NCBI GenBank assembly: GCA_033345235.1
Contig: JAWPOC010000016.1
Span: forward strand, 298 to 64,297
DNA from: Alphaproteobacteria bacterium
Lineage (GTDB): Bacteria > Pseudomonadota > Alphaproteobacteria > Rs-D84
DNA: 64,000 nucleotides
Direction: 5' to 3'
The notes under the pieces are model-generated. The model was not told the origin of the DNA, did not search any database, and saw only the letters and a program-made list of their open reading frames with translations. Below are positions 1 to 62,759 of the stretch, piece by piece. Within the stretch, counting starts at the first letter, position 1, and each line of letters opens with the position of its first letter. The translations under genes were made by a program, and so were the position numbers.

Positions 1-378
1 ATAGCTATAGCACACACCGTTTAAGTGATACTGACCAAAGCCACATATTGGTGCAGATTTAGTCACTGTATACAAATACGTACCTTTGGAATTTACTGGT
101 TGGATACGCGTTTTATCATAATTATATGTAGAATAAGGGCCATAACATTCACGTGCACCAGATTCTGTAAAACGAAACGTACTGACGTCCAGTGTTATTA
201 AATGACCGTTATTGTTTTCGAAATATTCTGCGCAATCTGTGTGATTGGTGGTAAAACTGATACATTTGCCGTTATATCTGTACTGGCCAAAGCCACATAT
301 TGCCGGCCCAAACGTCAGCAATTCTGCACAATTGGCAGATATGGGGATTAATAAAAACATCAACGCTATGGGTTTCAT
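1..378 (-). CDS. Cys-rich secreted repeat protein (runs off window; paralog of 9796..10962); not in ORF track
   Basis: Manual translation from ATG at 378: MKPIALMFLLIPISANCAELLTFGPAICGFGQYRYNGKCISF...SAPICGFGQYHLNGVCYSY, open to base 1. Signal-peptide-like N-terminus, GGAGG SD, repeated CxFGxYxxxGxC unit shared with 9796..10962. Confidence 0.85.
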   Translation of the reverse strand, partial: MKPIALMFLLIPISANCAELLTFGPAICGFGQYRYNGKCISFTTNHTDCAEYFENNNGHLITLDVSTFRFTESGARECYGPYSTYNYDKTRIQPVNSKGTYLYTVTKSAPICGFGQYHLNGVCYSY

Positions 379-395
379 TGCCCTCCACCTGTGTT

Positions 396-615
396 GTAAA
401 AAAACCACCTTTTATACTCAAGTGGTCAGGAGGTTCGAAACAATCCATAGAATTGTGTGCTTATTCAATATATTCGCAGCCCTCCTGACCTGTTATGGTC
501 AGGAGTGTTTCATCTGATAAAAAAAATACGCCTAATGGCGCCGTATAAAACTATCTTTTTTTTCAGACGCTATGGTAGAGGTTTCGACACCTCATCATCA
601 GATGACCCTGATGAC
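396..615 (-). ncRNA. C4/CI-like antisense RNA leader, copy 1 (core 423..490)
   Basis: Closing helix GGTCAGGAGG/CCTCCTGACC followed by A (3' ACCA). Loop CTATGG and bulge GTTTCGA are complementary to upstream CCATAG and TCGAAAC. Alternative hairpin and downstream terminator present. Confidence 0.8.
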
Positions 616-621
616 ACCCCA

Positions 622-649
622 ATTATAACGAATACACCGAAAAACGCAA
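622..649 (-). promoter_or_regulatory. sigma70-type promoter of leader copy 1
   Basis: TTGCGT-16 bp-TATAAT on minus strand. Confidence 0.65.
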
Positions 650-666
650 TTCTTTTTTAATACAAG

Positions 667-689
667 AAAACCGGCATTTGCCGGTCTTG
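667..689. terminator. CCGG-type intrinsic terminator after gpsA
   Basis: ACCGGCA-tt-TGCCGGT hairpin with U tract on the minus strand. Confidence 0.7.
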
Positions 690-1553
690 TTATATTTTTA
701 ATTTCTTTTTCATTTCCATTAACACTGGAACATCTATCCCCAGCGCATTTGCACGTTCAATCAAACCACATAGCGCAAAAACACCTTCGACTGTGCCTTG
801 GGGAGCTTCGCCGCGCGCAATCGCCGCACCGCCCGAGAAATTACGACTGGTTGGACTGGTCGCTGATAAAAACAAATCACCCAAACCACACAAACCTAAG
901 AACGTCTTGGTTTCTGCCCCAGACGCAACACCAATCGCAACAATTTCATCCCACGCACGTGTAAACAATAACGCACGTTCGTTTTCGCCCTTGACCGCAA
1001 CACTGTTATAACCACTTATCAAAGATGTCGCGTTTTTACCAACACCACAAATTTCTGTGCCAATAACGTCATGCGAATCAACTAAATATAACTTATTTAA
1101 CGCTTCGTGCGCCGCGTCTATGGCCACATCTGTTCCCGCAATGTTCGAACCAGTAGGAACACCCATGGCAACTTCGGCCGCGAATTGTGGCCCAGACAGC
1201 ACGCCAAAATCTGCACATTCTGGCAATTCTGTTTGCAATATTTCAGACATAAATTGACCTGTTGAACTTTCTGCCCCCTTGGTACAGATAATTACAGGCT
1301 GGCCATTATAAAACGCGCGTACTTTTTTCAAAGTTTCACGAAAATACGCAGATGGCGTTACAATCAGCCATACATCCATATCTTTTAGTTCGCTGGCATC
1401 CGTCGACACACGCAAATTTTCAGGCATTGTAACACCATCAAAACGCTTGTATTCACCATCATAAGACCATAACAATACATCAGACCCACCACGAGCCGAC
1501 ACCACCCCCAGCGCAGTACCCCATGCACCAGCACCAATTACACCTGTTTTCAT
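690..1553 (-). CDS. gpsA: NAD(P)H-dependent glycerol-3-phosphate dehydrogenase
   Basis: GAGAWGTAL Rossmann motif, TKG, SGPxFA, GLGDL..T..S..SRN. Confidence 0.95.
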   Translation of the reverse strand: MKTGVIGAGAWGTALGVVSARGGSDVLLWSYDGEYKRFDGVTMPENLRVSTDASELKDMDVWLIVTPSAYFRETLKKVRAFYNGQPVIICTKGAESSTGQFMSEILQTELPECADFGVLSGPQFAAEVAMGVPTGSNIAGTDVAIDAAHEALNKLYLVDSHDVIGTEICGVGKNATSLISGYNSVAVKGENERALLFTRAWDEIVAIGVASGAETKTFLGLCGLGDLFLSATSPTSRNFSGGAAIARGEAPQGTVEGVFALCGLIERANALGIDVPVLMEMKKKLKI

Positions 1554-3169
1554 TTTATTTTCCTTAGTTTTCTTTCAATTTCAGGGACGACCACTAATCC
1601 ATCATCAGATAAATCGATTGCACGCATATACGCATCCCGAGCCTTGGTATACTCGTCCAAAGAAACATATATGTCCCCCAAGTGCATAAATAACGAAGAA
1701 TACGTCGCAGAAATATCACCTACACGCTCTAATATTTCCAGCGCAGCAGGCGCGCCTTCGCGTACCGCAACAACGCAACCCAATGTATCCCACGCCAAAA
1801 TGTCCGTCGGATCTTGGGTAACCAATGTCATCGCATAATTATACGCACGTTCTATATCACGATTTTGCGCCGCCCATATCTTGGCCTGAAGTGATAAAAA
1901 TTCTGCATCCATTGCTAAAACATTCATCGCATCACTTAAATCACGCTGAGCCGCGTCATAATCGCCAAAAACAAAATGAATTTGTGCCCTGCTCTTTAAG
2001 AAAAACGCACGACCAATATCGTCCAAATTTTCATCCGACAATGCACGCTTTACAACCGCCAGCGCCGCACGACGATCGCCTTTTTTTATATGATGCGCAA
2101 TTAACTTGTTTATCGCAGGAACAAACAACGGATGTTCCGATAATGCCGCTTCTAAATTCGTCATATCACCCGTCTTTTCTGCGAAACGCAAAACAGAATA
2201 CAGATAAAAAGGACTGTTACTATCAATCTGGGCGAACAAATCTTGATAATTGCCGCCATTCGTATAAAAATAACGCCCTAAATAATAATTAATAGAATCA
2301 CTACTGCGGGCAAATTCTGGCGCAATCAACTGCGCAAAACGCAACATCAACACAGACATATCAGAATACATCAAAACCTGTGTGTGCGATACAGTCTGAA
2401 GTAAACTAAACGCCAACTGATTTGAATATCCAGAAAAAACAGACCAATCCGGAACAACATCATAATTCAACATAAACATCCCAGATGGACGTGACGTGAA
2501 CTGAGAACGTAAATCAGACGCTTTGTCCTGCATACCATGATGACTATAAAATGACATCATATATAGATAATCATTTATATTTAGAAAATCTATGGAAACC
2601 TTGTCAAAATACGAAGCCGCCTTGTCCGCCTGCCCCAATTCAGCATAAATCTGACCACGAACAAAATCTTTCCACGTGTCACTTGTCGGCATTGAATCAA
2701 TAAATTTAAACGTATTTGTACGCCAATCATTCGCAATCGCAGACCATATACGTAACGGCGCAACCAAAGCAACATTTTCTGTCTTGTGACGATTATGAAA
2801 ATCTTTCCACCTGCCCTGTCGCACCAGATACGCATCATATATAAATCTTGCCGCCAAGCCCTTTTCTTGACTAAGCGCTGCGGCATTTTCAGGCATACGA
2901 CCATTTAAAAAATCAGACATAGTCTTGACATTAGACACAACCAAGAAATCTGTATCACGTAAATTTTCTGAAAAAGATGACGCAGCATCAAAATCATTTA
3001 CGTAAATCGCATGTTGCGCCGCCAAAAAAGCCCCATATCGCGTTTCTGGAAACTTATACACATTTTCAATCTGAACCGGCGCGTCATTACCGCCAAAAAT
3101 CAGCCCACCTGTAACACCAATCACAGATAATAATGCCACAGCTGTAAATATACTTTCTATTTTTCTCAT
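1550..3169 (-). CDS. TPR-repeat membrane/periplasmic protein
   Basis: N-terminal TM segment and C-terminal TPRs (DTLG, HLGDIY..L...A...Y..A). Start moved to MRKIES (3169) to avoid overlap with rsmG. Confidence 0.8.
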   Translation of the reverse strand: MRKIESIFTAVALLSVIGVTGGLIFGGNDAPVQIENVYKFPETRYGAFLAAQHAIYVNDFDAASSFSENLRDTDFLVVSNVKTMSDFLNGRMPENAAALSQEKGLAARFIYDAYLVRQGRWKDFHNRHKTENVALVAPLRIWSAIANDWRTNTFKFIDSMPTSDTWKDFVRGQIYAELGQADKAASYFDKVSIDFLNINDYLYMMSFYSHHGMQDKASDLRSQFTSRPSGMFMLNYDVVPDWSVFSGYSNQLAFSLLQTVSHTQVLMYSDMSVLMLRFAQLIAPEFARSSDSINYYLGRYFYTNGGNYQDLFAQIDSNSPFYLYSVLRFAEKTGDMTNLEAALSEHPLFVPAINKLIAHHIKKGDRRAALAVVKRALSDENLDDIGRAFFLKSRAQIHFVFGDYDAAQRDLSDAMNVLAMDAEFLSLQAKIWAAQNRDIERAYNYAMTLVTQDPTDILAWDTLGCVVAVREGAPAALEILERVGDISATYSSLFMHLGDIYVSLDEYTKARDAYMRAIDLSDDGLVVVPEIERKLRKIK

Positions 3170-3190
3170 GATTGTGATAAAATAACACGT

Positions 3191-3745
3191 ATGAATAATA
3201 ATGTCAAATTTGAACAATACGAAGAAATGTTGCGCGAATGGTCTGGACGCATGAATCTTATCGCACCCAGCACCCTAAACAACATCCAAGAACGCCATTT
3301 TGCCGACTGCGCACAATTGGCGGACGTTTTACCACAAAATGTAAACATAATTGATTTAGGCAGCGGCGCCGGATTCCCCGGTGTAGTACTGGCAATATTG
3401 GGTTGGAACGTGACCTGTATCGAATCGATTGGCAAAAAAGCATCTTTTTTAACAGCCGTAAAAGAAAAACTAGGCCTAAAAAACCTGACAATTTACCATG
3501 GTCGCGTCGAAGATTTTATCCGGCATTTACCGGCAAAAAATAACAATTTTGTTTTTACAGCCCGGGCATTTGCGCCACTTATTAAAATTTTAGACTATGT
3601 CGCAAAAACAAAATACCGGCTTTTTTTAATAAAAGGCCGGCAAATAGAGACAGAAATAAATGTCGCAAAACAGAAATATAAATTTAATTACGACCTGATC
3701 CCCTCCAAGACAGGCGACGGGTTTATAATAAAAATCTGGTTTTAA
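3191..3745 (+). CDS. rsmG: 16S rRNA m7G527 methyltransferase
   Basis: MNL, RHFADC, DLGSGAGFPG, ARAFA motifs; upstream of parAB. Confidence 0.95.
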   Translation: MNNNVKFEQYEEMLREWSGRMNLIAPSTLNNIQERHFADCAQLADVLPQNVNIIDLGSGAGFPGVVLAILGWNVTCIESIGKKASFLTAVKEKLGLKNLTIYHGRVEDFIRHLPAKNNNFVFTARAFAPLIKILDYVAKTKYRLFLIKGRQIETEINVAKQKYKFNYDLIPSKTGDGFIIKIWF

Positions 3746-3747
3746 CT

Positions 3748-3838
3748 TATTTCACACGAAACAAAACACAACACACTGAAAACAGTGTGTTTTTATTTTT
3801 TTACAACCAAGCATATTATTTTTATTTCACACGAAATA
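3748..3838. promoter_or_regulatory. two parS-like sites (3748..3763, 3823..3838)
   Basis: TATTTCACACGAAACA and TATTTCACACGAAATA versus consensus TGTTTCACGTGAAACA; directly upstream of parA. Confidence 0.55.
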
Positions 3839-3946
3839 AAAATTAACGTATTGTTTATACAGTATTTTTTAAAAATGAATTTTAACATCTTGACTGGCCT
3901 TGACGTTTTTTATAACCTTAGAACCAGAAAAATGTAAAGGGGAAAA

Positions 3947-4729
3947 ATGACACGTATTATCGCATTCGCAAACCAAAAAGGCGGTGTTGGCAAAACAACA
4001 ACCGCAATTAACATCGGCGCATCTTTGGCCGCAATAAAAAAACGCGTTTTGTTAATCGATTTAGACCCCCAAGGTAACGCTGGTACCGGTCTGGGATTCG
4101 TTCGCGCTTCACACAGACAAAGCGTATACGGCGTTATTATGGGAACTGCATCAGCGGCAGACAACATATTAACAACCGCTGTCCAAGGCATGCACATACT
4201 GCCATCATCACAAGCCTTGGCTGGTGCGGACATCGATTTATTAGATATGGAAAATCGTGAATTTCGTCTGCGCGATGCACTGGCGCCAATAATGCAACAT
4301 TATGATTATATACTGCTGGATTGTCCGCCTGCATTAGGTTATTTAACTATTAACGCATTAACAGCCGCAGATTCTGTTATCGTGCCATTACAGTGCGAAT
4401 TCTTTGCACTGGAAGGAATACAACAGTTAACAGACACTATCGCCATTGTAAAAGAAAAATGGAATCCGAAACTAGAAATTCTGGGCGTACTGTTAACTAT
4501 GTACGACCGCAGATATGGCGTAACACACGCGATTGACAATGACGTACGTGAAACATTTGGTGATTTGGTATTTAAAACTGTTGTACCGCGTAACGTACGC
4601 GTATCAGAGGCACCAAGTCATGGCAAACCTGCACTGTTTTACGACTTTAATTCAACCGGCGCACAGGCGTACTTGCGCGTCGCAACCGAAGTAATTCAAA
4701 GAACCGAAGGAACAACAGATGGCAACTAA
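3947..4729 (+). CDS. parA: chromosome partitioning ATPase ParA/Soj
   Basis: NQKGGVGKTT, DLDPQGN, PRNVRVSEAPSHG. Confidence 0.97.
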   Translation: MTRIIAFANQKGGVGKTTTAINIGASLAAIKKRVLLIDLDPQGNAGTGLGFVRASHRQSVYGVIMGTASAADNILTTAVQGMHILPSSQALAGADIDLLDMENREFRLRDALAPIMQHYDYILLDCPPALGYLTINALTAADSVIVPLQCEFFALEGIQQLTDTIAIVKEKWNPKLEILGVLLTMYDRRYGVTHAIDNDVRETFGDLVFKTVVPRNVRVSEAPSHGKPALFYDFNSTGAQAYLRVATEVIQRTEGTTDGN

Positions 4730-5606
4730 ATTCGGACTGGGACGCGGTCTGGCCGACCTTAGCGCAGCACGCGGCGCAATCCCAGACATATCATTATTAA
4801 CACCAAACGAACGCGTCGTGGTGAAACAAATTCCACTGACGCAAATTGGCGCAAATCCTGACCAGCCCAGAAAAACGTTCACAGATTCCGAATTGGCTGA
4901 TTTGGCGGCATCTATCAAAGAAAAAGGTGTCTTGCAACCAATATTGTTGCGTACAGTACAAAACAAACCGCACACATATGAAATCGTCGCAGGCGAAAGA
5001 CGTTTTCGTGCATCTAAACTGGCAGGATTAACAGAGATTCCTGCACTGGTTAAAACAATCAGCCCTGAAAATGCGATGGAAATCGCGCTGATTGAAAATG
5101 TTCAGCGCGAAAATTTAAACCCAATCGAAGAGGCTGCTGCATATAAAAACTTGATGGAATGCTGTGATTATGAATTACCGGACGTTGCGCGCTTAATTGG
5201 CAAATCAGAAAGCTATATTCGCAATATGTTACGCATAACATCATTGCCTGAATCTGTGCAAAATTTGGTTGCCGAAGGCAAGATTTCCGCATCACACGCA
5301 CGTACAATTGCCGTTGCAGAAAATCCCGAAGAATTGGCACACAAAATTATCGCGGATGGTATGTCTGTATCAGATACAGATAAAATGGTAAAACGTGCGC
5401 CACGTGCAAACACAACCCGCAAACACATCCAAAGAACAATTGATACTGTACTGGTTCAAGAAATCGAATCAAAACTGACAAACATTTTTGGTGTGCCGGC
5501 AAAACTAATTGAAAGACGGGGCGGAGCAGGGCAGATAGTTTTATCTTTTGCCAATCGAAATCAACTGTTTGAATTAGTCGAAAAAATAGCAACACAAAAA
5601 CAGTAA
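4719..5606 (+). CDS. parB: chromosome partitioning protein ParB
   Basis: GLGRGL, QPRK, AGERRFRA, ENVQRENLNPIEEA. Confidence 0.97.
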   Translation: MATKFGLGRGLADLSAARGAIPDISLLTPNERVVVKQIPLTQIGANPDQPRKTFTDSELADLAASIKEKGVLQPILLRTVQNKPHTYEIVAGERRFRASKLAGLTEIPALVKTISPENAMEIALIENVQRENLNPIEEAAAYKNLMECCDYELPDVARLIGKSESYIRNMLRITSLPESVQNLVAEGKISASHARTIAVAENPEELAHKIIADGMSVSDTDKMVKRAPRANTTRKHIQRTIDTVLVQEIESKLTNIFGVPAKLIERRGGAGQIVLSFANRNQLFELVEKIATQKQ

Positions 5607-5634
5607 AAAAAGCCGGTAAACACCGGCTTTTTTT
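5605..5634. terminator. bidirectional CCGG-type terminator
   Basis: AAAAAGCCGGT-aaac-ACCGGCTTTTT between convergent genes. Confidence 0.85.
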
Positions 5635-5668
5635 ACACATTTTTATCGTATATAAAAAACACTGTTTT

Positions 5669-6703
5669 TTACCGGCTTTTACCGGTCTTTTTTAACAAAT
5701 TCTGTACATCAGACGCCATAGACGATAAAACATAATTCAATTCTGCCCGACGGGTGTTACGAATTAAATCTTGTTTAATGTCCGACAATGGGCGCGCGTT
5801 TCCATTGTCATCACACCAGCGGGTTTTGATATTAATATCCATATTTTCCCCCAGCACAATATCGCCATTTGCACCCAACCCCATCATAACACGTGGTGAA
5901 GTATTACCTGACAAAAACTGGAACTGGGATACATCTGAACGATTTGGTAAATCAAAGTCTTTGGCACGACCGCCATTAAACAAACAGGCAAATGTTTGGT
6001 ACATAACAACTGTTCCATTTATACCATAATAAATCTTTTTAGACGCGTCACCCATTGCGAAATATTCTTCAACAGTGTTTCCCTGACGCTGCAGTTCAGC
6101 CAGCAAGGCATTAAACATATCTGCGTCTGGGGCAAAAGAAGAAATATGAACCATACAGGCGCTGTTTTTCTGTCTGCGCGATAATTCTGTTATAAAACGT
6201 GCGTTCTTTTCTAAACACATCGGATGAAAACGGTCCAAAGACAACGATATTCGCAGCCTTGACATATCCAGCGTTCCATGACTGAACTTAGACAAAACGG
6301 CTGTTAAATCATCAAAAATACCATCGCCTGTACCATTTTTACGCAGCGCCCAGCCTGCATTTGTCTTGATATCAACAACACAATCATTAGACAGCGCATA
6401 ATCCAACAAATCAGGCACATAATGTTTATCATAAAACCTGTAAGCAGTAAATATTTCACCACCTGTAAACACAACACTATCCGAGAATAATGGGTCTTGT
6501 TTTGCCTGAGAAATAAAAGACTTTATCGTGTCGGCCGGCATATAAACCTTTGGCGCGTTTGTTCCGGACCGTTCGCAACAATGGGGACAATTATTCCAAC
6601 AATAATTTGTTGTCTTGAAAACCAATACATACGGCAGTTTTCTAACAAAACCGCTGATTGGAAAATAAAAATCATTTACCGCATTAGATATTTTTTTGAA
6701 CAT
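5669..6703 (-). CDS. radical SAM domain protein
   Basis: CWNNCPHC (CxxxCxxC), FTGGE, TNAGW, SLDRFH. Confidence 0.85.
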   Translation of the reverse strand: MFKKISNAVNDFYFPISGFVRKLPYVLVFKTTNYCWNNCPHCCERSGTNAPKVYMPADTIKSFISQAKQDPLFSDSVVFTGGEIFTAYRFYDKHYVPDLLDYALSNDCVVDIKTNAGWALRKNGTGDGIFDDLTAVLSKFSHGTLDMSRLRISLSLDRFHPMCLEKNARFITELSRRQKNSACMVHISSFAPDADMFNALLAELQRQGNTVEEYFAMGDASKKIYYGINGTVVMYQTFACLFNGGRAKDFDLPNRSDVSQFQFLSGNTSPRVMMGLGANGDIVLGENMDINIKTRWCDDNGNARPLSDIKQDLIRNTRRAELNYVLSSMASDVQNLLKKTGKSR

Positions 6704-6814
6704 AAATTATAACCTTTTGACAAAAAGTATAATACACAATATATTTTTGTCAATCATAAAGAACACAAATAAAATACCCGCCGTTTGGCGGGTTTTTATA
6801 TCTTTCAACAGTAA

Positions 6815-7228
6815 TTATTTAACTGTTGTTGTGGCATTACGATTCCATTTCCAAACTTCTTCGCCAGAACCCTGAACCAATGGGCGTTCTTTGCCATAAG
6901 AAATTGTAGAAATACGTTTTGGACTGATACCGTCGTTAACCAAGACTTTCTTGGCTGCGTTTGCGCGACGTGCGCCCAATGCCAAGTTGTATTCTGTTGA
7001 ACCACGTTCGTCGCAGTTACCAGCGATTTGGATTTTTACATCTTCGTGGTTTTTCATATACAACGCCTGACCCAACAGGTTGTTTTCAGCTTCTTTTGAG
7101 ATTTCAGCAGAGTTGAAATCAAAGAAAACGCGTTGATCGTTCAAATCAGCAGGTTCAACAATAGAACCGCCACATGCAGCCAGCAAGCCTGCAACGCCTG
7201 CCAACAAAGCTAAGTTTTTTATTTTCAT
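6815..7228 (-). CDS. pal: peptidoglycan-associated lipoprotein (OmpA family)
   Basis: LAAC lipobox, DERGSTEYNLALGARRA, SYGKERP. Confidence 0.95.
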   Translation of the reverse strand: MKIKNLALLAGVAGLLAACGGSIVEPADLNDQRVFFDFNSAEISKEAENNLLGQALYMKNHEDVKIQIAGNCDERGSTEYNLALGARRANAAKKVLVNDGISPKRISTISYGKERPLVQGSGEEVWKWNRNATTTVK

Positions 7229-7305
7229 GAAAATACTCCCTTGAGTTTCTGTTACTCGTAGTATAGTCTATAATAAAACACACATTAAATCAAGGGAAAA
7301 CAAGT

Positions 7306-8055
7306 ATGCCTTATAACAGTTTAAAAGATTTAGTCCAAGCAGGTGTCAAATGGGAACTGGATGACGTCGCGTTTATAAATTCAGATAATACGCAAAAAAG
7401 TACATCCAAATCCAATGAAACACCAGCCAGCCCAACATCGTCTGTTGTGCCGCCAATTGCGCCGGTTCAGACAATCCCGCTGGACACAGTCAAATCAATG
7501 GCAATGCGCCCAACAGATATTAAATCTTTGCTGCGCATGATTGGTGAATTTAATCATCCATTGCGTGGCTCTGCGACGAATACTGTTTTACCGCATATCG
7601 GCCAGGGCAGGGTACTGGTATTAACCGACATCCCCAGTTCTGATGACGATGCGCGCGGCGAAATTATGTCTGGGGCGCATGGCGATTTACTGGACAAAAT
7701 GATTGGCGCAATTGGTTTAACCCGCGATATGGTCAGTATTTCACCAATGTTGTTTTGGCGCACCCCAGGGGGACGAACACCAACACAACAAGAAATCGAC
7801 CTGTCACGACCATTTGTCGACAAAATAATCGAATTATTGAATCCACGCGTCATTTTGACACTGGGAACATTACCTGCAACAGAAATCGCAGGCATAAATC
7901 TGGCAAAATCACATGGTGAAATCTTGGACAGTCAAAACGGCATAAAAATTATACCGATATTTCATCCGAATTATTTGACGTTGAAACCTGCCGCCAAGAA
8001 AGACGCATGGGTCGCATTGCAAAAAGTTCAAAATATCTTGAAAAACGCGGAATAA
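7306..8055 (+). CDS. uracil-DNA glycosylase (family 4-like)
   Basis: G.LLDKMI.AIGL, WRTPGGRTP, IFHPNYL..P..K..AW. Confidence 0.85.
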   Translation: MPYNSLKDLVQAGVKWELDDVAFINSDNTQKSTSKSNETPASPTSSVVPPIAPVQTIPLDTVKSMAMRPTDIKSLLRMIGEFNHPLRGSATNTVLPHIGQGRVLVLTDIPSSDDDARGEIMSGAHGDLLDKMIGAIGLTRDMVSISPMLFWRTPGGRTPTQQEIDLSRPFVDKIIELLNPRVILTLGTLPATEIAGINLAKSHGEILDSQNGIKIIPIFHPNYLTLKPAAKKDAWVALQKVQNILKNAE

Positions 8056-8095
8056 TAGTTAATAATTTCCCCATATTGTAACAAAGGAGCATACA

Positions 8096-8644
8096 ATTAA
8101 ACCGACATTTAATCGTGATAATAGACGCGATGCAGGTCCACGTATGAACAACGGGATTTTTGCAAAATCAGTTCAAGTAATCAGCGCAGACGGCCAAAAT
8201 CTGGGGGTTATGCCAACATCTCAGGCACTGGAATTGGCATCTAGCCAAGGTTTAGACTTGGTTGAAATGAACGCGAATGGCGCAGTACCAATTACCAAAA
8301 TTATGGATTATGGTAAATTCAAATACGAACAGAAAAAACGCGCCAGCGAGGCAAAAAAGAATCAAAAAACAACCGAAATGAAGGAAGTTTGGATAAAACC
8401 TTTTATTGAAGAAAATGATTTAAACATCAAAATGAAAAAGGTTTTTGAATTCTTGGGCGACGGGAACAAGGTTAAAATTTCTGTTATGACCAAGGGATCA
8501 AAAAAAGTATTGGCGCGTGGCAAAGATGCTGTGCCGGAATTATTTGCGCGTGTAATTGAAATTGTGGGCGACAAGGGTAATCTGGAATCAAAATCAAAGC
8601 CAGATGAACGAACAAAATCAATTATTATTGCCCCGGCGAAATAA
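8096..8644 (+). CDS. infC: translation initiation factor IF-3 (ATT start)
   Basis: LDLVE, KIMDYGKFKYE motifs. In-frame ATT at 8096 with AAGGAG SD at 8084-8089, upstream of the tracked ATG at 8144. Confidence 0.93.
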   Translation: MKPTFNRDNRRDAGPRMNNGIFAKSVQVISADGQNLGVMPTSQALELASSQGLDLVEMNANGAVPITKIMDYGKFKYEQKKRASEAKKNQKTTEMKEVWIKPFIEENDLNIKMKKVFEFLGDGNKVKISVMTKGSKKVLARGKDAVPELFARVIEIVGDKGNLESKSKPDERTKSIIIAPAK

Positions 8645-8691
8645 AAATGCCCCGTTCGGGGCGTTTTTTTTGGGGCGTCAGTATCAAAATT

Positions 8692-9225
8692 TTATTTTCC
8701 AATAGAATTAAACATTGATCTTAAGTAATCGTAGTTACCAGCATGTCTTCCACACACATCCATACAACGAGCTTTACACCATTCAAAATTACTCTCAACA
8801 ATAGTTAACGTCCATTGTGAAGACATTGGATGTGTTAATTTACAAAAACAATATTTACGCTCATTTTCAGGTTTACTGGTATCACCATTATAATACTCAT
8901 AACGTCCCATTAATTCATAATCATCTGTTGGCAAAACATAAACACCGCCTACACCACCTGGATTGTATAGCCCTGTGATAGTTTGATCACCTGAAATATC
9001 ACGCACTTCTTGTAAGGCCAGACATGTTGCGGTACCATAAATTTTACCATAACTGGGGTTCCCCCACCAAATCCATTCTATTTGATTAAATTGATTCATG
9101 CCACCACCATCAAGCACAGTTGCGTCCAAGGGGACAACCGTTACATCGCGGTGCGCGCACATTTCGGTTGCATACGCACTAAAACCAATAAAAACACAGC
9201 AAATTAAATATAAAAATTTCTTCAT
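8692..9225 (-). CDS. Cys-rich secreted protein (YCxCK..P..S.W...C...C...C family)
   Basis: Signal peptide; KYCFCKLTHPMSSQW...CKARCMDVC. Confidence 0.8.
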   Translation of the reverse strand: MKKFLYLICCVFIGFSAYATEMCAHRDVTVVPLDATVLDGGGMNQFNQIEWIWWGNPSYGKIYGTATCLALQEVRDISGDQTITGLYNPGGVGGVYVLPTDDYELMGRYEYYNGDTSKPENERKYCFCKLTHPMSSQWTLTIVESNFEWCKARCMDVCGRHAGNYDYLRSMFNSIGK

Positions 9226-9240
9226 CTATTCCCCCTTTGT

Positions 9241-9771
9241 TTACCAGATTTTATTAAATAACGCTTCACGCAAAGGTATGCCATTTGCCATCGCGCCATT
9301 GTTGGAAAACTTTGTCGCGCAATATTCTGTACAAGATTCTAGACATTCACCTTCGGTGTTGTATTCATTAATATATGTCCACCATGATGTAACAGGGCCG
9401 TCCATCTTGCACCAGCAATATTTACCACTGTCCCCAGGTGACGCCTTGAGAAAAGTGTTCGCATCGCCAAATGTTATACCATCCAGACTGGATTCTTTCC
9501 CGTCATCTGATGATTTAACATGTATATCATTACATGTCACACGACCAACAATATCTGTGCGTTCTACGCCGTCTGGGTGCGCACTGGCAAACAGGTCATA
9601 ACCAAAATCTACCGTCCAACGCATTGTATTTGTATCAAATTCTGTATGGATGCCGTTTACCTTGTTCTGCAAGACAACCATAACCAAAGTATTACGTTTG
9701 CAGACCTCGTTTTGGTCGGCCGCCCACAATGACATCGGTATCATCAGCAATATCATCATCAGTTTCTTCAT
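9241..9771 (-). CDS. Cys-rich secreted protein, paralog of 8692..9225
   Basis: Signal peptide; KYCWCKMDGPVTSWW...CLESCTEYC. Confidence 0.8.
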   Translation of the reverse strand: MKKLMMILLMIPMSLWAADQNEVCKRNTLVMVVLQNKVNGIHTEFDTNTMRWTVDFGYDLFASAHPDGVERTDIVGRVTCNDIHVKSSDDGKESSLDGITFGDANTFLKASPGDSGKYCWCKMDGPVTSWWTYINEYNTEGECLESCTEYCATKFSNNGAMANGIPLREALFNKIW

Positions 9772-9795
9772 TCGTTCTCCTTTCTTCTTTGTTCT

Positions 9796-10962
9796 TTAAT
9801 CTATCGTTATCAATGTTTCATTCTTGCCGAGATCAGGGTTATAAAACATTGTTCGGATTGGATTTGGTTTTTCGCCAACAAAGTGGTTTATCGCCTCTGG
9901 TGGTACTAAATTCACATAACACATCTGTTCATTCCCCGATGCGTTCACAAACTTAAAGTGCATGGCTGGATCACTGGTCTTGGACGCATATAATGGATAG
10001 CTGTACTTTTCCCCGTTTTCCCCAGGCAGCGCAACATGCAGGCGCAATTTCTTGTCACCGTTTTCGCAATAGCCGTTCGTTGAACAACGACCTGAATTTG
10101 TATAAACTTCGCCCGCGTTTTCACACAATACACCACATACCATTAATTTTTCGAACGTTACTGGATTCCATGTTTCAGAATTTTCCATATAATCTATGTC
10201 AGACGCAGTGATATCTTTGCAGTCTGTGTTTACTTTGAATTTCTTGTACCCCCCAGATGTATCACAAATCGCACGTTCTGGACGCGCAAAAGGCTGATAA
10301 TCACTGGCAACACCACGCAATTCAACACGATAATAATGTTCTGAATTTTTCGAGCATTTTGTTTCTTTCATTGTCTTGAACGTGCCAATCTCAGACCCAA
10401 TATACATCAATGTCCCGTTATAGCGCGGATAAATCATATCATCCGTCGATTCTGTATATTTGTATCGTGAATACGTTCCCAGACATACTGGCTCTACTTG
10501 CTCTAAGGCCATAAATGACGCACTTTCTGCGACTGTTTTATAGTGGTTTTCTTTACAATTTTTTTGCCCAGATGCATATGTAATACATTCGCCATTAAAA
10601 TGATACGACCCAAACGGACATGTTGGCGCATAAGATGATACTTTATAAAACGTCCCACGCGATGGAATTTTAACCAATAATGACGTGTCATACGAATATA
10701 ATGAATATGTACCCCAACAAGGTAAATTAGCAGCTTCTTTGCCACGAAATGTGCTGGCTTCGGTTTGTACACGATATGTTTGTTGCGCGCCGTTAATCTT
10801 TGGACATCTGGCGTCTTGGATCGATAAAGATATGCATTTTCCATCCAGATGGTAATACCCAAATGGACATGTTGCACCGCTGTGCGCCAAATCCATCAAA
10901 TACGCTGCGTGCGCGTCGCAAATTAAAAATATTCCGGATAAAAATAATATACTCTTTGTCAT
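9796..10962 (-). CDS. Cys-rich secreted repeat protein
   Basis: Signal peptide from MTKSILF; two CPFGxYHxxGxCI repeats. The tracked N-terminal extension to 11223 reads through the RNA leader and is probably spurious. Confidence 0.8.
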   Translation of the reverse strand: MTKSILFLSGIFLICDAHAAYLMDLAHSGATCPFGYYHLDGKCISLSIQDARCPKINGAQQTYRVQTEASTFRGKEAANLPCWGTYSLYSYDTSLLVKIPSRGTFYKVSSYAPTCPFGSYHFNGECITYASGQKNCKENHYKTVAESASFMALEQVEPVCLGTYSRYKYTESTDDMIYPRYNGTLMYIGSEIGTFKTMKETKCSKNSEHYYRVELRGVASDYQPFARPERAICDTSGGYKKFKVNTDCKDITASDIDYMENSETWNPVTFEKLMVCGVLCENAGEVYTNSGRCSTNGYCENGDKKLRLHVALPGENGEKYSYPLYASKTSDPAMHFKFVNASGNEQMCYVNLVPPEAINHFVGEKPNPIRTMFYNPDLGKNETLITID

Positions 10963-10981
10963 CCCCATCCTGTTGGCTCTC

Positions 10982-11192
10982 AAAACAAAACCACCATACA
11001 AAACAGTGGTCAGGAGGTTCAGAACAATCATACGAATTGTGTGCTTATTCAATATATTCGCAGCCCTCCTGACCAAATTGGTCAGGAGATTTTTCATCTG
11101 AGTATAAAAAACACGCCCAACGGCGCGGAAATTTCTTTCCCAGACGCGTATGCACGGGTTCTGACACCCCATCATCAGATAACCCTGATGAC
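10982..11192 (-). ncRNA. C4/CI-like antisense RNA leader, copy 2 (core 11007..11074)
   Basis: Core is 62/68 identical to copy 1; loop CGTATG and bulge GTTCTGA match upstream CATACG and TCAGAAC. Confidence 0.8.
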
Positions 11193-11199
11193 AAAAAAC

Positions 11200-11227
11200 A
11201 TTATAACTGATATGAAAATTCAATCAA
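11200..11227 (-). promoter_or_regulatory. sigma70-type promoter of leader copy 2
   Basis: TTGATT-16 bp-TATAAT. Confidence 0.65.
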
Positions 11228-11288
11228 GTGGTTTCTTTATCGTAACTAGAACATCGACCACTAAAAAAATGCCCCGATGGGCATTTTT

Positions 11289-12377
<1,089 letters not shown>

Positions 12378-12441
12378 TCACATAGGTTAAAAAATCAAGG
12401 CTGACTTCGATAAAAATATTTGATTTATTTTATATTATGCT

Positions 12442-12801
12442 ATGATAAATACCACTATGATACGAGATACAATTAAAAAACATGACGATTTTGCAATGGA
12501 CGAAGACGATCCTATCGCAAAAAGCCGATATTTCTTAATTCGCGCCAAGGTAACAAAATTCCCACGCGACGCACGTTATGGCTTAATCGTCACAAAGAAA
12601 ACTTTTAAACACGCCGTCGATAGAAACCGCGCAAAACGTTTGCTGCGTGATTGGATTGCTTTTAACGAAAATCTGATGCGCAGAGATTGGGATTATGTCT
12701 TTATCGCCAGACGTGCCATATTGGACGCAACACGAACCGAAGGACGAACCGCAATTAAAAAAGCCTTGGATTTCTTGCGTAGACAGAATATTTATGTGTA
12801 A
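12442..12801 (+). CDS. rnpA: ribonuclease P protein component
   Basis: KK...[12 protein letters not shown] (RNR motif); followed by yidD. Start may be 12457. Confidence 0.9.
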
Positions 12802-13030
12802 AAAAAATAATCTATCACAAAAAATCGCTGTGAAAATGGTGCGAATGTACCAGATTTGTATTTCACCCTTTATCGGGGGCAGGGCAGCATGCAGATTTAC
12901 ACCAACCTGCAGCGAATATACTGTACAAGCAATACAAAAATATGGCGCAATACGCGGAATATGGCTGGGAATAAAAAGAATCAGCCGCTGCAGACCAAAC
13001 GGTGGTTGCGGTTATGACCCTGTGCCTTGA
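12794..13030 (+). CDS. yidD: membrane protein insertion efficiency factor YidD
   Basis: [20 protein letters not shown]...GYDPVP. Confidence 0.93.
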
Positions 13031-13092
13031 CAATGTATTTGAATATGGTACACTAGTAAATAATGTTATAGATTTTAAATAAAGGATAAAAA

Positions 13093-13536
13093 ATGTCTTT
13101 TCGTGCAACCGTTGAATCTATGTCAAAAATCATGGATGATATGGGGATAACAGAACTGGAACTGGAACGTCAATTCTTGTTTGGAATGTATCGTAAACAT
13201 ATACATTTATCAAAACAAAAAGCTGCTGCGGTCGCTGTAACAACAGGCGCAACAGAACATAAAATTCATTCTATCGGCACAACAACACAACCACAAATTA
13301 ACGGCCATACGTTGAATTCACCAATGGTTGGTGTGGTGTATCTGGCCCCAGAACCAGGCGCAGATACTTTTGTTACTGTGGGCGCATCTGTCAAGGCAGG
13401 GGATACAGTCGCATTGGTCGAAGCAATGAAAACTTTTAATCCAATCAAATCTGACAAAGACGGCGTTGTCAAAGAAATACTGGTATCTGATGGCGCAGCT
13501 GTTGAATTTGATCAACCATTGATAATAATCGAATAA
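13093..13536 (+). CDS. accB: biotin carboxyl carrier protein
   Basis: SPMVG, EAMK biotinylation motif. Confidence 0.95.
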   Translation: MSFRATVESMSKIMDDMGITELELERQFLFGMYRKHIHLSKQKAAAVAVTTGATEHKIHSIGTTTQPQINGHTLNSPMVGVVYLAPEPGADTFVTVGASVKAGDTVALVEAMKTFNPIKSDKDGVVKEILVSDGAAVEFDQPLIIIE

Positions 13537-13539
13537 TAA

Positions 13540-14886
13540 ATGTCTCAGATAAAAAAAGTATTAATTGCAAATCGCGGTGAAATTGCACTGCGTATCATTC
13601 GCGCATGTCGCGATATGGGCATCAGGACTGTGGCGGTATATTCAACCGCAGATAAAAACTCGCTGCACGTACAATTGGCTGATGAATCTGTATGTATTGG
13701 GCCGGCAGCTGCACGCGATTCTTATTTAAACGAATCCGCAATATTAACTGCGGCGTTACTGACAAATTCAGACGCGATTCATCCAGGATACGGCTTTCTG
13801 TCCGAACGCGCAGACTTTGCACACAAGGTTGAACAACATGGTATGATTTGGATTGGGCCTGCACCTGATATGATTACTAAGATGGGCGACAAGGTTAATG
13901 CAAAAAAAACCGCAATTGAATGTGGATTACCTGTTGTACCTGGGTCTGATGGCGCGGTTGAAACAGTCGAACAGGCGCTGGATATCGCAGAAAAAATTGG
14001 CTATCCCGTTATGCTAAAAGCGGCCGCAGGTGGCGGTGGACGCGGCATGCGCGCTGTGATGAATGCATCAGAAATGACAGAGGCGTTCCAACTGACCAAG
14101 AAGGAATCTGGGACGGCATTCGGTGATGATACACTGTATATGGAAAAGTTGCTGCAACACCCACGTCATATCGAATTCCAAATACTGGGTGATAAACATG
14201 GCAACGTTGTGGTGTTTGGTGAACGTGACTGTTCGTTACAAAGACGAAATCAAAAGGTTATGGAAGAATGTCCGGCCGCAATATTATCACAAAAACAACG
14301 TGATGATATGATTGAAGTCTGCAAATCTGCCGCCAAGAAAATGAAGTACACAAATGCCGGTACTTTTGAGTTTATGTTCGAAGATGATAAATTCTATTTC
14401 TTGGAAATGAATACACGTCTGCAGGTCGAACACCCTGTAACAGAAATGGTGTACGGAATTGACTTGGTTCGCGAACAAATCAGAATTGCTGCTGGGGAAA
14501 AACTGGGGTACAACCAATCAAATATTATACCAAATGGACATGCAATCGAATTTCGTATCAATGCCGAAGATCCTGAAACCTTTGTTCCAAACCCTGGGCA
14601 GATTACATTGTATGCGCCGTCTGGGGGACTGGGGGTTCGTGTGGACAGTGCAGTATACACAGGATACACAATTCCACCAACATACGATTCAATGATTGCA
14701 AAATTAATTGTGCATGCACAAAACAGACCTGCGTGTATCATGCGCGCAGCACGTGCATTAGATGAATTCGTTATCGAAGGTGTAAAAACAACTATTCCTT
14801 TGCAACAAAAATTGCTGGGGAACAAGGATGTCAAACAATTAAACTTTGACAATCATTGGTTGGAAGAATTCTTGAAAAAAGATTAA
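13540..14886 (+). CDS. accC: biotin carboxylase
   Basis: ANRGEIA, HPGYGFLSE, EMNTRLQVEHPVTE. Confidence 0.97.
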   Translation: MSQIKKVLIANRGEIALRIIRACRDMGIRTVAVYSTADKNSLHVQLADESVCIGPAAARDSYLNESAILTAALLTNSDAIHPGYGFLSERADFAHKVEQHGMIWIGPAPDMITKMGDKVNAKKTAIECGLPVVPGSDGAVETVEQALDIAEKIGYPVMLKAAAGGGGRGMRAVMNASEMTEAFQLTKKESGTAFGDDTLYMEKLLQHPRHIEFQILGDKHGNVVVFGERDCSLQRRNQKVMEECPAAILSQKQRDDMIEVCKSAAKKMKYTNAGTFEFMFEDDKFYFLEMNTRLQVEHPVTEMVYGIDLVREQIRIAAGEKLGYNQSNIIPNGHAIEFRINAEDPETFVPNPGQITLYAPSGGLGVRVDSAVYTGYTIPPTYDSMIAKLIVHAQNRPACIMRAARALDEFVIEGVKTTIPLQQKLLGNKDVKQLNFDNHWLEEFLKKD

Positions 14887-14911
14887 AAAAAGCCGGTAAA
14901 TACCGGTTTTT

Positions 14912-15097
14912 TTATATTGAATATAATGCATGTCGCGTGTCATTCATAAAAACAACCAGATAAAAATTTGATAGATATTTTCCATACGCAACAAAGTGCC
15001 TATATTCGCCTTCGGTCATATTTAATATATTACAAACATCAGTTATCGACAGTCCGCGTTTAATTCTTATTTGTTCGATTTCTTGTCCCAGACGCAT
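14912..15097 (-). CDS. small XRE-like helix-turn-helix protein
   Basis: MRLGQEIEQIRIKRGLSITDVCNILNMTEGEY; GGAG SD before ATG at 15097. Confidence 0.75.
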   Translation of the reverse strand: MRLGQEIEQIRIKRGLSITDVCNILNMTEGEYRHFVAYGKYLSNFYLVVFMNDTRHALYSI

Positions 15098-15112
15098 AGC
15101 TAACTCCATAAA

Positions 15113-15286
15113 TAAAATAACCACCTGAAAATAGGGTGGTTGGAGGTTAGCATTCGTATAACAACATACTCAGCGACTATTCAATGTATTCATCGCCCTC
15201 CAACCATCGGGTTGGAGCATTTAACGTCTGCGCAGACGGTTGTTACCGAGAATGCTAATTCTCGCATAATAGGCACCCTATTACAA
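15113..15286 (-). ncRNA. C4/CI-like antisense RNA leader, copy 3 (core 15137..15205)
   Basis: Helix GGTTGGAGG/CCTCCAACC(A); GAATGCTAA and GTTGTTA are complementary to upstream TTAGCATTC and TAACAAC. Confidence 0.8.
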
Positions 15287-15291
15287 CGAGT

Positions 15292-15343
15292 ATTATAACC
15301 TATAACCAAGTCTTTTCAATATGATTTTCATATTCGAATATGA
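15292..15343 (-). promoter_or_regulatory. promoter of copy 3 with overlapping palindromic operator
   Basis: TTGAAA-16-TATAAT; AATATGA-ttt-TCATATT (15318-15334) and perfect palindrome TCATATTCGAATATGA (15328-15343). Confidence 0.6.
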
Positions 15344-15363
15344 CTTTTTTCTTATTTTATAGG

Positions 15364-15537
15364 TAAAAAAACAACCATCAAAATAGGATGGTTGGAGGTT
15401 AGTACTTTGCACAGCAACATGCTCAGCGACTATTCAATATATTTGTCGCCCTCCAACCACGGGTTGGAGCATTTAACGCCTGCGCAGACGGTCACTGGCG
15501 AGAGTACTAATCTCGCATAATAGGCACCCTATTACAA
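15364..15537 (-). ncRNA. C4/CI-like antisense RNA leader, copy 4 (core 15389..15458), with no ORF of its own
   Basis: Tandem diverged duplicate of copy 3. AGTACTAA/TTAGTACT and GTTGCTG/CAGTGAC (two G-U) pairings; own promoter TTGCAA-16-TATAAT at 15543-15570. Confidence 0.8.
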
Positions 15538-15608
15538 TCGGTATTATAACCTATATAATTGTTCTTGCAATAATAAATATAAAAAACACCGGCATTTACC
15601 GGCTTTTT

Positions 15609-22125: not shown

Positions 22126-22202
22126 TGGTGGGTGGTATTGGGCTCGAACCAACGACCTTTACGATGTCAACGTAACGCTCTAGCCAACTGAGCTAACCAC
22201 CC
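22126..22202 (-). tRNA. tRNA-Val(GAC)
   Basis: Cloverleaf GGGTGGTTAGCTCAG...TTGACAT...GTTCGAG...ACCA. Confidence 0.96.
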
Positions 22203-22300: not shown

Positions 22301-22376
22301 GCCGGTATAGCTCAGTTGGTAGAGCATCTCATTCGTAATGAGGGGGTCGTAGGTTCAAGTCCTATTACCGGCACCA
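22301..22376 (+). tRNA. tRNA-Thr(CGT)
   Basis: GCCGGTATAGCTCAG...TTCGTAA...GTTCAAG...ACCA. Confidence 0.96.
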
Positions 22377-23968: not shown

Positions 23969-24224
23969 CACAATAAAAAAAACGCCCGCAAGGGACGATT
24001 TTTATTGTGGAGGCCTGGGTCGGAATGTTCACATCGCCCAATGGGCGACCGTTGCTGAACGCAACTTGATTCACCACTCGCACAGGTTTGCTGCGTAATT
24101 TAATATTTGCTACTTGCAAACCTTGGCTCGTATGCGAACCGGCGCCGGTTCTCCGCACCACAATTTCACAATAAAAAAACGCCCCAAAAGGGACGATTTT
24201 TATTGTGGAGGCCTGGGTCGGAAT
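23969..24224 (-). repeat. tRNA-Cys-linked direct repeat (about 58 bp, period 198) enclosing a structured spacer of about 140 nt
   Basis: The last 19 nt of tRNA-Cys plus its terminator occur twice (23969..24026 and 24167..24224). Confidence 0.85.
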
Positions 24225-24279
24225 CGAACCGGCATCCAAGGATTTGCAGTCCTCTGCATAACCACTCTGCCACCAGGCC
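24206..24279 (-). tRNA. tRNA-Cys(GCA)
   Basis: GGCCTGGTGGCAGAGTGG...CTGCAAA...GTTCGATT...TCCA, 74 nt. Confidence 0.96.

Positions 24280-62682: not shown

Positions 62683-62759
<77 letters not shown>

Follow-up and report, generated by a model that had tools for sequence, protein, structure and literature searches.

The stretch analysed here (the window) comprises 64,000 nucleotides (nt) of an alphaproteobacterial genome (assembly GCA_033345235.1, contig JAWPOC010000016.1, positions 298 to 64,297) and contains four leader units on the minus strand, placed ahead of genes for secreted cysteine-rich (Cys-rich) proteins in the case of copies 1 and 2 and, as a tandem pair, ahead of a gene for a small helix-turn-helix (HTH)-like protein in the case of copies 4 and 3. 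Each unit is built in a specific order from a promoter-like TTGnnn/TATAAT site, a hairpin H1, a hairpin H2 with a short site a, a second short site b, hairpins H3 and H4, a tRNA-like core of 68-70 nt with segments b' and a' complementary to the sites b and a of the same leader, and a terminator-like hairpin T2, and this layout is common to all 31 aligned copies of the genome. The first-pass annotation had placed four such leaders on the minus strand, and recomputed positions recover all of them, with the quoted a/b codes and their complements in the core present in every copy and with the pairing of b and b' in copy 4 through two G-U pairs. Cores 1 and 2 are indeed identical at 62 of 68 positions, and the six differences fall at core positions 42-45 (b') and 53-54 (a'). 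On the evidence presented below, we assign a probability of about 0.5 to the reading that these units are clade-wide c4-type leader RNAs, derived from phage anti-repressor modules and multiplied in front of secreted-protein operons, where they exert a locus-specific feedback on terminators.

The core is closed by a helix P1 of 10 base pairs (bp), which starts with GGT and whose 3' strand is followed by A, hence the ACCA at the end of the core. P2 is a short stem with an invariant 15-nt AU-rich loop, b' lies in the loop of P3, and a' occupies the junction between P3 and P1, where it overlaps the last two P3 pairs. A three-helix fold of the C4 kind is present, with 99.5% of the alignment cells paired in P1 and 100% in P3. 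Upstream of the core, site a lies in the loop and on the 3' side of H2, site b directly abuts H3, and H4 is formed by the P1 5' strand with an upstream copy of the P1 3' strand; H4 and P1 are mutually exclusive because both use the P1 5' strand. At the other end, the last three bases of P1 are shared with the 5' arm of T2. Three types of unit can be distinguished: type A, to which copies 1 and 2 belong, has a further terminator-like hairpin T1 inside H3, type B, which includes copies 3 and 4, has a short H3 without T1, and type C has a longer P2, lacks T1 and is nearest to the Rfam family sRNA-Xcc1. In a consensus scan, a promoter was called for copies 2, 3 and 4, T1 for copies 1 and 2, and T2 for copies 2 and 4. 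Relative to shuffled sequences, terminator-like sites are over-represented (37 versus 17.3, standard deviation 3.4), and promoter-like sites as a class are not (53 versus 51). An A-rich conserved stretch, AAAAACACC or AAAAACGTC, is located just upstream of the -35 TTG in most of the 31 aligned copies and may serve as an UP-like element or be bound by a shared factor.

Rather than the four copies implied at first, the genome (a 941,730-bp assembly in 19 contigs, 96% complete) holds at least 39, four of them in the window: a pattern search found 31, and eight more came from R1, a core covariance model trained on the 23 type-A cores, together with the Rfam sRNA-Xcc1 model. Several copies lie within a few hundred bases of contig ends (C5:466-546, C10:466-547, C12:7698-7778, C13:19494-19580, C16:712-792, C17:363-438 and C19:360-436); the family is probably a main cause of the breaks in the assembly, and more copies than these may exist. 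R1 core matches occur in 33 of 36 other sampled genomes of the genus, at 2-42 per genome, and in 6 of 24 genomes of other families in the same order. A pattern scan of a species collection returned at least 114 stretches, and 77 of the 80 loci examined among the matches listed hold R1 matches (91 in total), the three loci without a match bearing non-alphaproteobacterial titles. Near-identical cores are present in records named Candidatus Enterousia, which is probably the genus concerned (order Rs-D84). Members of Enterousia live in the gut, have genomes below 1 Mb and possess neither the tricarboxylic acid cycle nor respiration (PMC12306168, from which the term 'small RNA' is absent). Head-to-tail arrays of two to five units, about 200-250 nt apart, are found in this and two other genomes, those of the other two (G013 and G003) being located by R1 match coordinates alone, and in the window pair formed by copies 4 and 3 each unit has a separate promoter and code. 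In another species, a family unit (L067:354-430, minus strand) occupies the same place downstream of GpsA as window copy 1; its type and code are unlike those of copy 1, and its downstream open reading frame (ORF) is without a signal peptide.

The property that sets each unit apart is the private match between its core and its own upstream sites. All 31 (a', b') pairs of the pattern-found copies are unique, being built from 18 a' and 22 b' codes, and ordered a-then-b sites, with b within 30 nt of a and Watson-Crick or G-U pairs allowed, were found upstream in 29 of 31 cognate as compared to 23 of 930 non-cognate pairings. In the eight copies found later, a and b also match a' and b', as judged by eye. 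By duplex energy, the cognate leader ranks first for 21 of the 22 type-A cores that were detected earliest (mean -16.1 versus -8.5 kcal/mol). A formal pair count over 22 of the 23 type-A leaders, with the divergent L037 left out, revealed the a.a' helix to be paired in 100% of cells, with two-sided changes at its four central pairs in 5, 12, 13 and 14 of the 22 sequences, and the four outer b.b' pairs to be 91-100% paired. In statistics that consist of shuffles, slid controls and cognate versus non-cognate counts and are not tree-aware, the observed covariation score was reached by none of 500 shuffles, and slid controls were 35-41% paired versus 92.5% observed. Within type A, P1, H4 and P3 exhibit no two-sided change, and P3 covaries between types. 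Pairwise differences amount to 48.5% at code positions versus 4.4% at other core positions, a code is shared by none of 231 leader pairs, and the closest pair of leaders differs at 7 of 24 code positions but at 7 of 147 others. The proposal that the specificity segments have been individually re-coded and compensated is thus borne out by the cognate counts, the pair counts and the divergence of the code positions. An exchange of the inner b..b' segment as a cassette, hinted at by one pair, was rejected, since the inner difference is 0.255 for same-b pairs versus a baseline of 0.270.

The same matching is observed in other species, for which 86 of the 91 cores could be used, five being dropped as truncated or as having less than 150 nt upstream. 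Among the matches listed, ordered Watson-Crick a/b sites are present for 37 of 86 cognate versus 2 of 7310 non-cognate pairings, and site a alone for 70 of 86 versus 470 of 7310; most failures arise because type-B cores with long P3 loops mismatch the fixed b' probe. No (loop, junction) pair recurs within either of two nearly closed genomes (38 of 38 distinct in G013 and 23 of 23 in G003), and a trimmed Watson-Crick test within each genome gave 25 of 38 cognate versus 14 of 1406 non-cognate pairings in G013 and 16 of 23 versus 9 of 506 in G003. Turnover of the code can be followed at one orthologous locus, the leader of the HTH gene behind window copy 4 and in four other species, where the leader is nearly identical and yet five distinct b codes occur; b' fits b in every one of these leaders, in two cases by way of G-U pairs. 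These observations bear directly on the notion that the units are a dispersed repeat, such as a miniature inverted-repeat transposable element (MITE)-like element or a duplicated promoter region, whose pairings are by-products of duplication and which produces no functional RNA. The many copies, several at contig ends (C5, C10, C12, C17 and C19), and the fact that part of the similarity stems from duplication of whole gene families, leaders included, would suit such a repeat, but duplication copies codes and would not re-code both partners, and it accounts neither for compensated two-sided changes in 5-14 of 22 sequences per central a.a' pair, nor for the covariation of P3 between types, nor for matching that holds across species and in phage contigs, nor for the fact that every copy faces a same-strand downstream gene. 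We therefore consider a functionless repeat extremely improbable.

With the matched sites established, any second target of the core was sought downstream and elsewhere in the genome. A cognate a-then-b site in the 140 nt downstream of the core is found in 0 of 31 copies versus 7 of 930 non-cognate pairings, single sites there are not enriched (a, 3 of 31 versus 97 of 930; b, 9 of 31 versus 344 of 930), and among the matches listed none of the 86 chromosomal cores of other species has such a downstream pair (a2/b2). A genome-wide scan places a strict Watson-Crick a..b site in the own leader for 30 of the 39 cores and returns only eight other sites beyond the 39 trivial antisense strands of the cores themselves, that is 0.205 per code versus 0.207 per chimeric control code. 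Since other sites occur only at the control rate, the own leader is the sole specific partner of each core in the genome. The translational mechanism of phage P1 as such, to whose C4 RNA the leaders had been likened, cannot apply because the chromosomal copies have neither a2/b2 nor another target.

How the parts of a leader interact was assessed by folding whole transcripts of 29 of the 31 leaders, two being dropped since the site search had failed in them. In 27 of the 29, the unconstrained minimum-energy fold is a clamped form: the H2 5' strand pairs with the first bases of the P1 3' strand and so lengthens a.a', b.b' is stacked on H3, and both H4 and T2 are present. The best P1-containing fold is less stable than this clamp in all 29, on average by 9.7 kcal/mol (standard deviation 4.3). 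In nascent type-A leaders cut at T1 (n = 19), the T1 stem is part of the minimum-energy fold in 11 of 19 with a and b free versus 19 of 19 with a and b occupied, its competitor being a pairing of conserved bases just after b with the T1 5' arm. From these features we infer the following course for processing, for action in trans and for the sign and site of control. Transcribed from its own promoter through H1, H2 with site a, b, H3 (with T1 in type A), H4, the core and T2, the primary transcript would first clamp itself, with a.a', b.b', H4 and T2 formed, and would mostly stop at T2. RNase P and 3' trimming would then release a stable core RNA; the GGT start and ACCA end fit a release by RNase P like that of C4, and the genome has genes for RNase P RNA (176 bits), the RNase P protein (rnpA) and Rho. 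The released core would pair with a and b solely in transcripts newly made from its own locus, and this pairing would set the number of polymerases that pass T1 and T2 into the downstream operon, a locus-specific feedback that is most likely negative, as with P1 c4 and P4 CI, while private codes would prevent cross-talk among about 39 parallel circuits.

Several results weigh against this feedback reading. When a and b are blocked in the predicted folds, H4 and T2 persist in 24 of 29 leaders and P1 appears in only 5 of 29, hence there is no equilibrium switch at T2, and a switch to P1 upon blocking of a and b, which had been considered, is not predicted by equilibrium folding; with H4 and T2 persisting in this way, formation of the tRNA-like core would require prior removal of the H4 arm. 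At T1, the two competing forms are just 0-3.3 kcal/mol apart, and T1 is absent from type-B and type-C units altogether. Identical code pairs are absent, yet only 0.53 (39 copies) or 1.04 (type A) would be expected under independent assortment, with probabilities of finding none of 0.57 and 0.31, so that the lack of shared pairs is what independent assortment predicts and selection against duplicate codes is unsupported. Compensated variation in a helix that serves for pairing only could also arise from a purely intramolecular role. Hfq was not found in the 96%-complete genome, and although the feedback does not need it, one usual helper is gone. Finally, the suggested Rfam check on C4 came out negative: RF01695, with a gathering score of 45 bits, matches nothing in the genome at E<=10, no C4 match came from permissive scans of eight copies and of window positions 1-16500, and R1 in turn scores phage P1 c4 at only 4.5 bits, whereas RF01695 finds phage P1 c4 at 68.8 bits as a positive control. 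Because RF01695 does not match and R1 scores phage P1 c4 so low, homology to c4 is argued from the architecture, a sub-threshold link to sRNA-Xcc1 and the phage relatives.

Many of these points would equally follow if a and b acted only in cis, as a purely intramolecular clamp that holds a', b' and the P1 3' strand closed and directs folding, processing or stability, with T2 constitutive and leaky, the operon expressed by basal read-through and the released core having no regulatory target in the host. Such a role would agree with the predominance of the clamp among the predicted folds, the unchanged fate of T2 when a and b are blocked, the lack of any target beyond the own leader and of a2/b2, and the non-significance of missing duplicate codes; in phages, a1/b1 could by extension work as a safety catch, keeping a freshly made transcript from silencing the a2/b2 that it carries. 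A clamp gives no reason, however, for a ten-fold higher divergence of the code positions, for the concentration of differences between the closest leaders in their codes, or for the turnover of the code at an orthologous locus whose surrounding leader is nearly fixed, and the same a' and b' clearly address a second site in phage members. Moreover, a stable tRNA-like core with a GGU start and a CCA end is built like a released RNA. A role confined to cis is on balance a possible but doubtful explanation.

The closed, terminated form being the default fold, the opposite sign of control can also be envisaged, in which free core opens the clamp on transcripts of its own locus and promotes maturation or read-through, so that positive feedback makes each operon a bistable, heritable ON/OFF switch and a clone displays combinatorial variation of its surface proteins. 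It would be consistent with the fact that free core can bind only the a/b half of the clamp, with the private code of each locus, with tandem arrays of two to five units and with the nature of the controlled genes, which form multigene families of secreted proteins. However, opening of the clamp alone does not favour P1 over H4 and T2 in 24 of 29 leaders, occupancy of a and b favours T1 and thereby more termination in type A, and the precedents, phage P1 c4 and P4 CI, are repressors; we consider a bistable switch decidedly unlikely.

A phage origin, as had been proposed, is supported by the presence of the same RNA family before anti-repressor genes in three viral contigs. Two scans gave R1 matches at eight viral-contig loci, L234 and L236 having the same sequence at and near the core, and in three contigs a core scoring 44-53 bits is followed by an anti-repressor-type gene. 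These three (L233, L237 and L244) have matched a/b sites upstream and a second a/b pair downstream, which ends 2 nt (L233), 9 nt (L237) and, by eye, 3 nt (L244) before the start codon, and no second pair was found in viral-contig copies without an anti-repressor gene. The position of a2/b2 at anti-repressor starts implies that a' and b' serve as antisense recognition elements in this family. It also supports the view that the P1-type layout is ancestral within the family and that the chromosomal copies are derived, presumably through loss of a2/b2 and addition of a U-run behind the 3' hairpin. No blastn match to the leader was found among GenBank phages or PLSDB plasmids. On one further viral contig, a gene for an IS605 OrfB/TnpB (Cas12f1-like) protein (L240:9082-10209, plus strand) lies directly upstream of a family core, and a 10-codon ORF follows the core.

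Given such relatives, chromosomal cores might act mainly in trans on the a2/b2 sites of phages, whether incoming or resident, the codes being a standing repertoire of immunity RNAs and their turnover an arms race. This RNA family does occur on phage contigs, where a2/b2 lie at the start codons of anti-repressor genes, the codes evolve fast, the L233 phage copy has an a code that is also found in the host, and heteroimmunity between P1 and P7 is set by few code changes, according to PMC5320573. Against this, no host (a, b) pair equals any of the three phage pairs, only an a code being common, the matched a and b kept in every host leader and the placement before secreted-protein operons are left unexplained, and the argument draws on three phage examples. 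An anti-phage function of the chromosomal copies is accordingly very unlikely in our judgement, as compared to locus-specific feedback on the operons that follow them.

The controlled operons are of two types, encoding either a protein of about 70 residues followed by one of 830-1000 residues, or a Cys-rich protein of 335-415 residues followed by two proteins of about 180 residues. By a simple heuristic, 25 of 27 called first ORFs have signal-peptide-like starts, and the two exceptions are an ORF whose start was called wrongly and the HTH-like gene that follows window copy 3. No controlled protein has a Pfam or NCBIfam match above threshold. A 998-residue protein (L179:169-3165, minus strand, corresponding to G000:C4), encoded by the second gene of an operon of the first type, matches phrog_9915, of unknown function, over residues 582-954 (2.7e-69); a protein-atlas search gave only weak PKD, DUF285 and LRR leads for it, with scores below 0.9, and nothing for the 388-residue protein behind copy 2. 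It may be a protein of surface or receptor-binding type shared with phages. Small HTH-like proteins of 61-70 residues are encoded behind a family leader in the window, at a paralogous locus (G000:C15:57166-57257) and in four other species (L064, L079, L106 and L133), and might be a shared partner or regulator of the system.

The surroundings of the window copies agree with the non-phage context claimed for them, with flanking housekeeping genes and no prophage nearby: the genes encode GpsA, a TPR protein, RsmG, ParA, ParB, a radical-SAM protein, a UDG-family protein, IF3, MreB, RnpA, AccB, AccC, MnmG and a FabG-like reductase, and the only matches to phage families near the copies are one weak match of unknown function and an ATP-grasp match to AccC. 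The gene rnpA (RNase P protein) lies at 12442-12801 on the plus strand, between copy 2 and copies 3 and 4; its position is probably a coincidence, though RNase P is the expected core-releasing enzyme. Two strong two-way terminator-like hairpins, at 5603-5636 and 6776-6793, lie between convergent genes and are the cause of weak sub-threshold Rfam matches (Thr/Phe-leader, STnc). The only Rfam matches at gathering score in the window are four tRNA genes, at 22129-22202 (minus), 22301-22373 (plus), 24209-24279 (minus) and 62686-62759 (minus).

Table 1. Leader units, their parts and downstream genes in the window, tandem arrays and viral relatives
Feature	Position	Strand	Remarks
Gene for secreted Cys-rich protein after copy 1	1-375	-	Signal-peptide-like start; runs off the window
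Copy 1, whole unit, type A	398-627	-	-10 hexamer 627-622; inferred start about 615; T2 U-run end 398; from 31-copy alignment
Copy 1, core, 68 nt	423-490	-	P1 closing helix, P2 with invariant loop, P3; b' 450-445, a' 441-435; ACCA end
Copy 1, T1	528-541	-	Terminator-like hairpin, then eight-T run; nested within H3
Copy 1, site b	570-575	-	Single-stranded; abuts H3 on its 5' side
Copy 1, site a	581-587	-	Loop and 3' side of hairpin H2
Operon after copy 2	8692-10962	-	388-residue secreted Cys-rich protein (9796-10962), 176-residue (9241-9771) and 177-residue (8692-9225) proteins; no described family matched
Copy 2, whole unit, type A	10987-11227	-	Promoter-like site 11227-11200; inferred start about 11193; T2 end 10987
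Copy 2, T2	10989-11011	-	Terminator-like hairpin; 5' arm overlaps core 3' end
Copy 2, core, 68 nt	11007-11074	-	b' 11034-11029, a' 11025-11019
Copy 2, T1	11112-11127	-	Terminator-like hairpin and T-run
Copy 2, site b	11147-11152	-	
Copy 2, site a	11158-11164	-	
Gene for 61-residue HTH-like protein after copies 4 and 3	14912-15097	-	Weak HTH_31 match, E 0.033
Copy 3, whole unit, type B	15114-15319	-	Without T1; promoter-like site 15319-15292; inferred start about 15285; T2 end 15114
Copy 3, sites and core	a 15258-15250; b 15245-15239; core 15205-15137	-	b' 15165-15159, a' 15155-15147
Copy 4, whole unit, type B	15365-15570	-	Promoter-like site 15570-15543; inferred start about 15536; T2 U-run end 15365; tandem, upstream of copy 3
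Copy 4, sites and core	a 15510-15503; b 15497-15491; core 15458-15389	-	b' 15418-15412, a' 15406-15399; T2 15394-15372
Tandem arrays	G013:C3:144119-145340; G013:C4:27192-27741; G003:C2:180376-180861; G003:C1:328269-328752; window 15114-15570		
Viral contig L233			Phage_pRha (2.1e-30) after core; DNA primase nearby
Viral contig L237			Bro-N (7.4e-20) and phrog_130 Ant (2e-41) after core; endolysin nearby
Viral contig L244			Phage_pRha (3.6e-31) after core

If the feedback reading is true, about one transcription unit in 25 of a 0.94-Mb genome would be under a single RNA design, re-addressed dozens of times, and no larger natural collection of individually addressed RNA control units would have been seen in a single cell. 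The case would also represent a clear takeover of a phage immunity device for host genes, with the ancestral a2/b2 anti-repressor form still alongside, and would give a testable role to a1/b1, which are 'putative' in the phage P1 record and are here the sole remaining target, kept under compensation. The hundreds of natural code pairs, with their cross-reactivity limits, would be parts for orthogonal RNA regulators, and the family points to control of secreted or surface proteins in an uncultured, host-dependent gut lineage (probably Candidatus Enterousia, order Rs-D84). One might go further and regard the units as heritable RNA-addressed ON/OFF switches that latch about 39 secreted-protein operons independently, each through the action of its released core on its own leader, giving a host-dependent gut bacterium combinatorial surface variation without DNA rearrangement in a code space contested with phages whose anti-repressors are controlled by the identical RNA, though we hold this extension to be unlikely.

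As for known systems, the C4-like order of parts and pairing logic proposed for the leaders matches the immI leader of phage P1, whose record annotates in order a promoter, a1 (7 nt), b1 (8 nt), the 77-nt C4 RNA, and a2 and b2 at the icd ribosome-binding site, and whose C4 sequence starts with GGT, ends with CCACC and carries b' in the loop of a hairpin and, behind it, a' in the 3' junction. Common to C4 of phages P1 and P7 (RF01695) and the family are thus a promoter, a site a of 7 nt, a short gap, a site b of 6-9 nt, spacer hairpins and b' before a', with b' in the P3 loop and a' in the 3' junction of a core that starts with GGT and ends with CCA(C). In our own reading of the P1 sequence, a putative hairpin with a U-run lies between b1 and C4, followed by a predicted hairpin overlapping the C4 5' strand, so that in P1, as in the family, an upstream hairpin would compete with the closing helix. 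In both, specificity rests on few code positions, and the family's phage members also have the C4-type a2/b2 at the anti-repressor start codon. The two differ in P2, with an invariant 15-nt AU-rich loop in the family and a GC-rich tetraloop hairpin in P1 C4, and in copy number, which is about 39 per genome here; chromosomal copies further lack a2/b2 (0 of 31), end in the U-run terminator T2 and precede genes for secreted proteins rather than icd/ant.

The nearest Rfam model is that of the small RNA (sRNA) sRNA-Xcc1 (RF02221), with 10 full-length matches in the genome, the best at 50.6 and 45.3 bits and none of them reaching the gathering score of 53; in a separate scan of eight copies, one type-B copy scored 34 bits. 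It has the same closing helix, two hairpins, AAUACA-type loop, junction and CCAC tail, and types A and B diverge from it further than type C. sRNA-Xcc1 is borne on integrons and islands of Xanthomonas and Xylella, can be multi-copy and tandem, and adjoins C4 and isrK matches in Xylella (PMC12189769); it is found upstream of symE on the same strand (bioRxiv 10.1101/2025.06.18.660453), and no published statement of matched upstream sites for its copies was found in the literature covered. From sequence comparison, the family may be viewed as a divergent branch of the phage P1 c4 and sRNA-Xcc1 kind. Among chromosomal systems, Group 1 of Acinetobacter baumannii comprises 21 C4-like sRNAs in one genome, which are processed from longer transcripts at a GGW site and have a hairpin region upstream as well as an a' segment that varies (Weiss et al. 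2016, PMC5320573). In the sections covered, only a' varies there, the Region 1 upstream loop is a fixed consensus, the Rfam C4 motif is matched and copy-by-copy matching of upstream sites is not described; in the present family, by contrast, a, b, a' and b' are all re-coded per copy, no C4 match exists and the units are leaders of secreted-protein operons.

Within the literature covered, which did not extend to subscription journals and supplements, no published description was found of the alphaproteobacterial family, of matched re-coding of both sites, of a2/b2 loss or of the link to secreted-protein operons, and the invariant loop sequence is in no paper found. The c4-a1b1 motif is listed, with no accession, in Weinberg 2010. 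Already in print are multi-copy chromosomal C4-like RNAs, the phage P1 a1/b1 sites and this motif.

Phage P4 offers a second point of comparison. Its CI is an RNase P-processed RNA from its own operon leader, with which it pairs to cause premature termination, and one site is located on each side of CI, whereas both sites of the family are upstream of the core. By analogy, P4 CI would be the closest precedent for a self-addressed leader acting at terminators.

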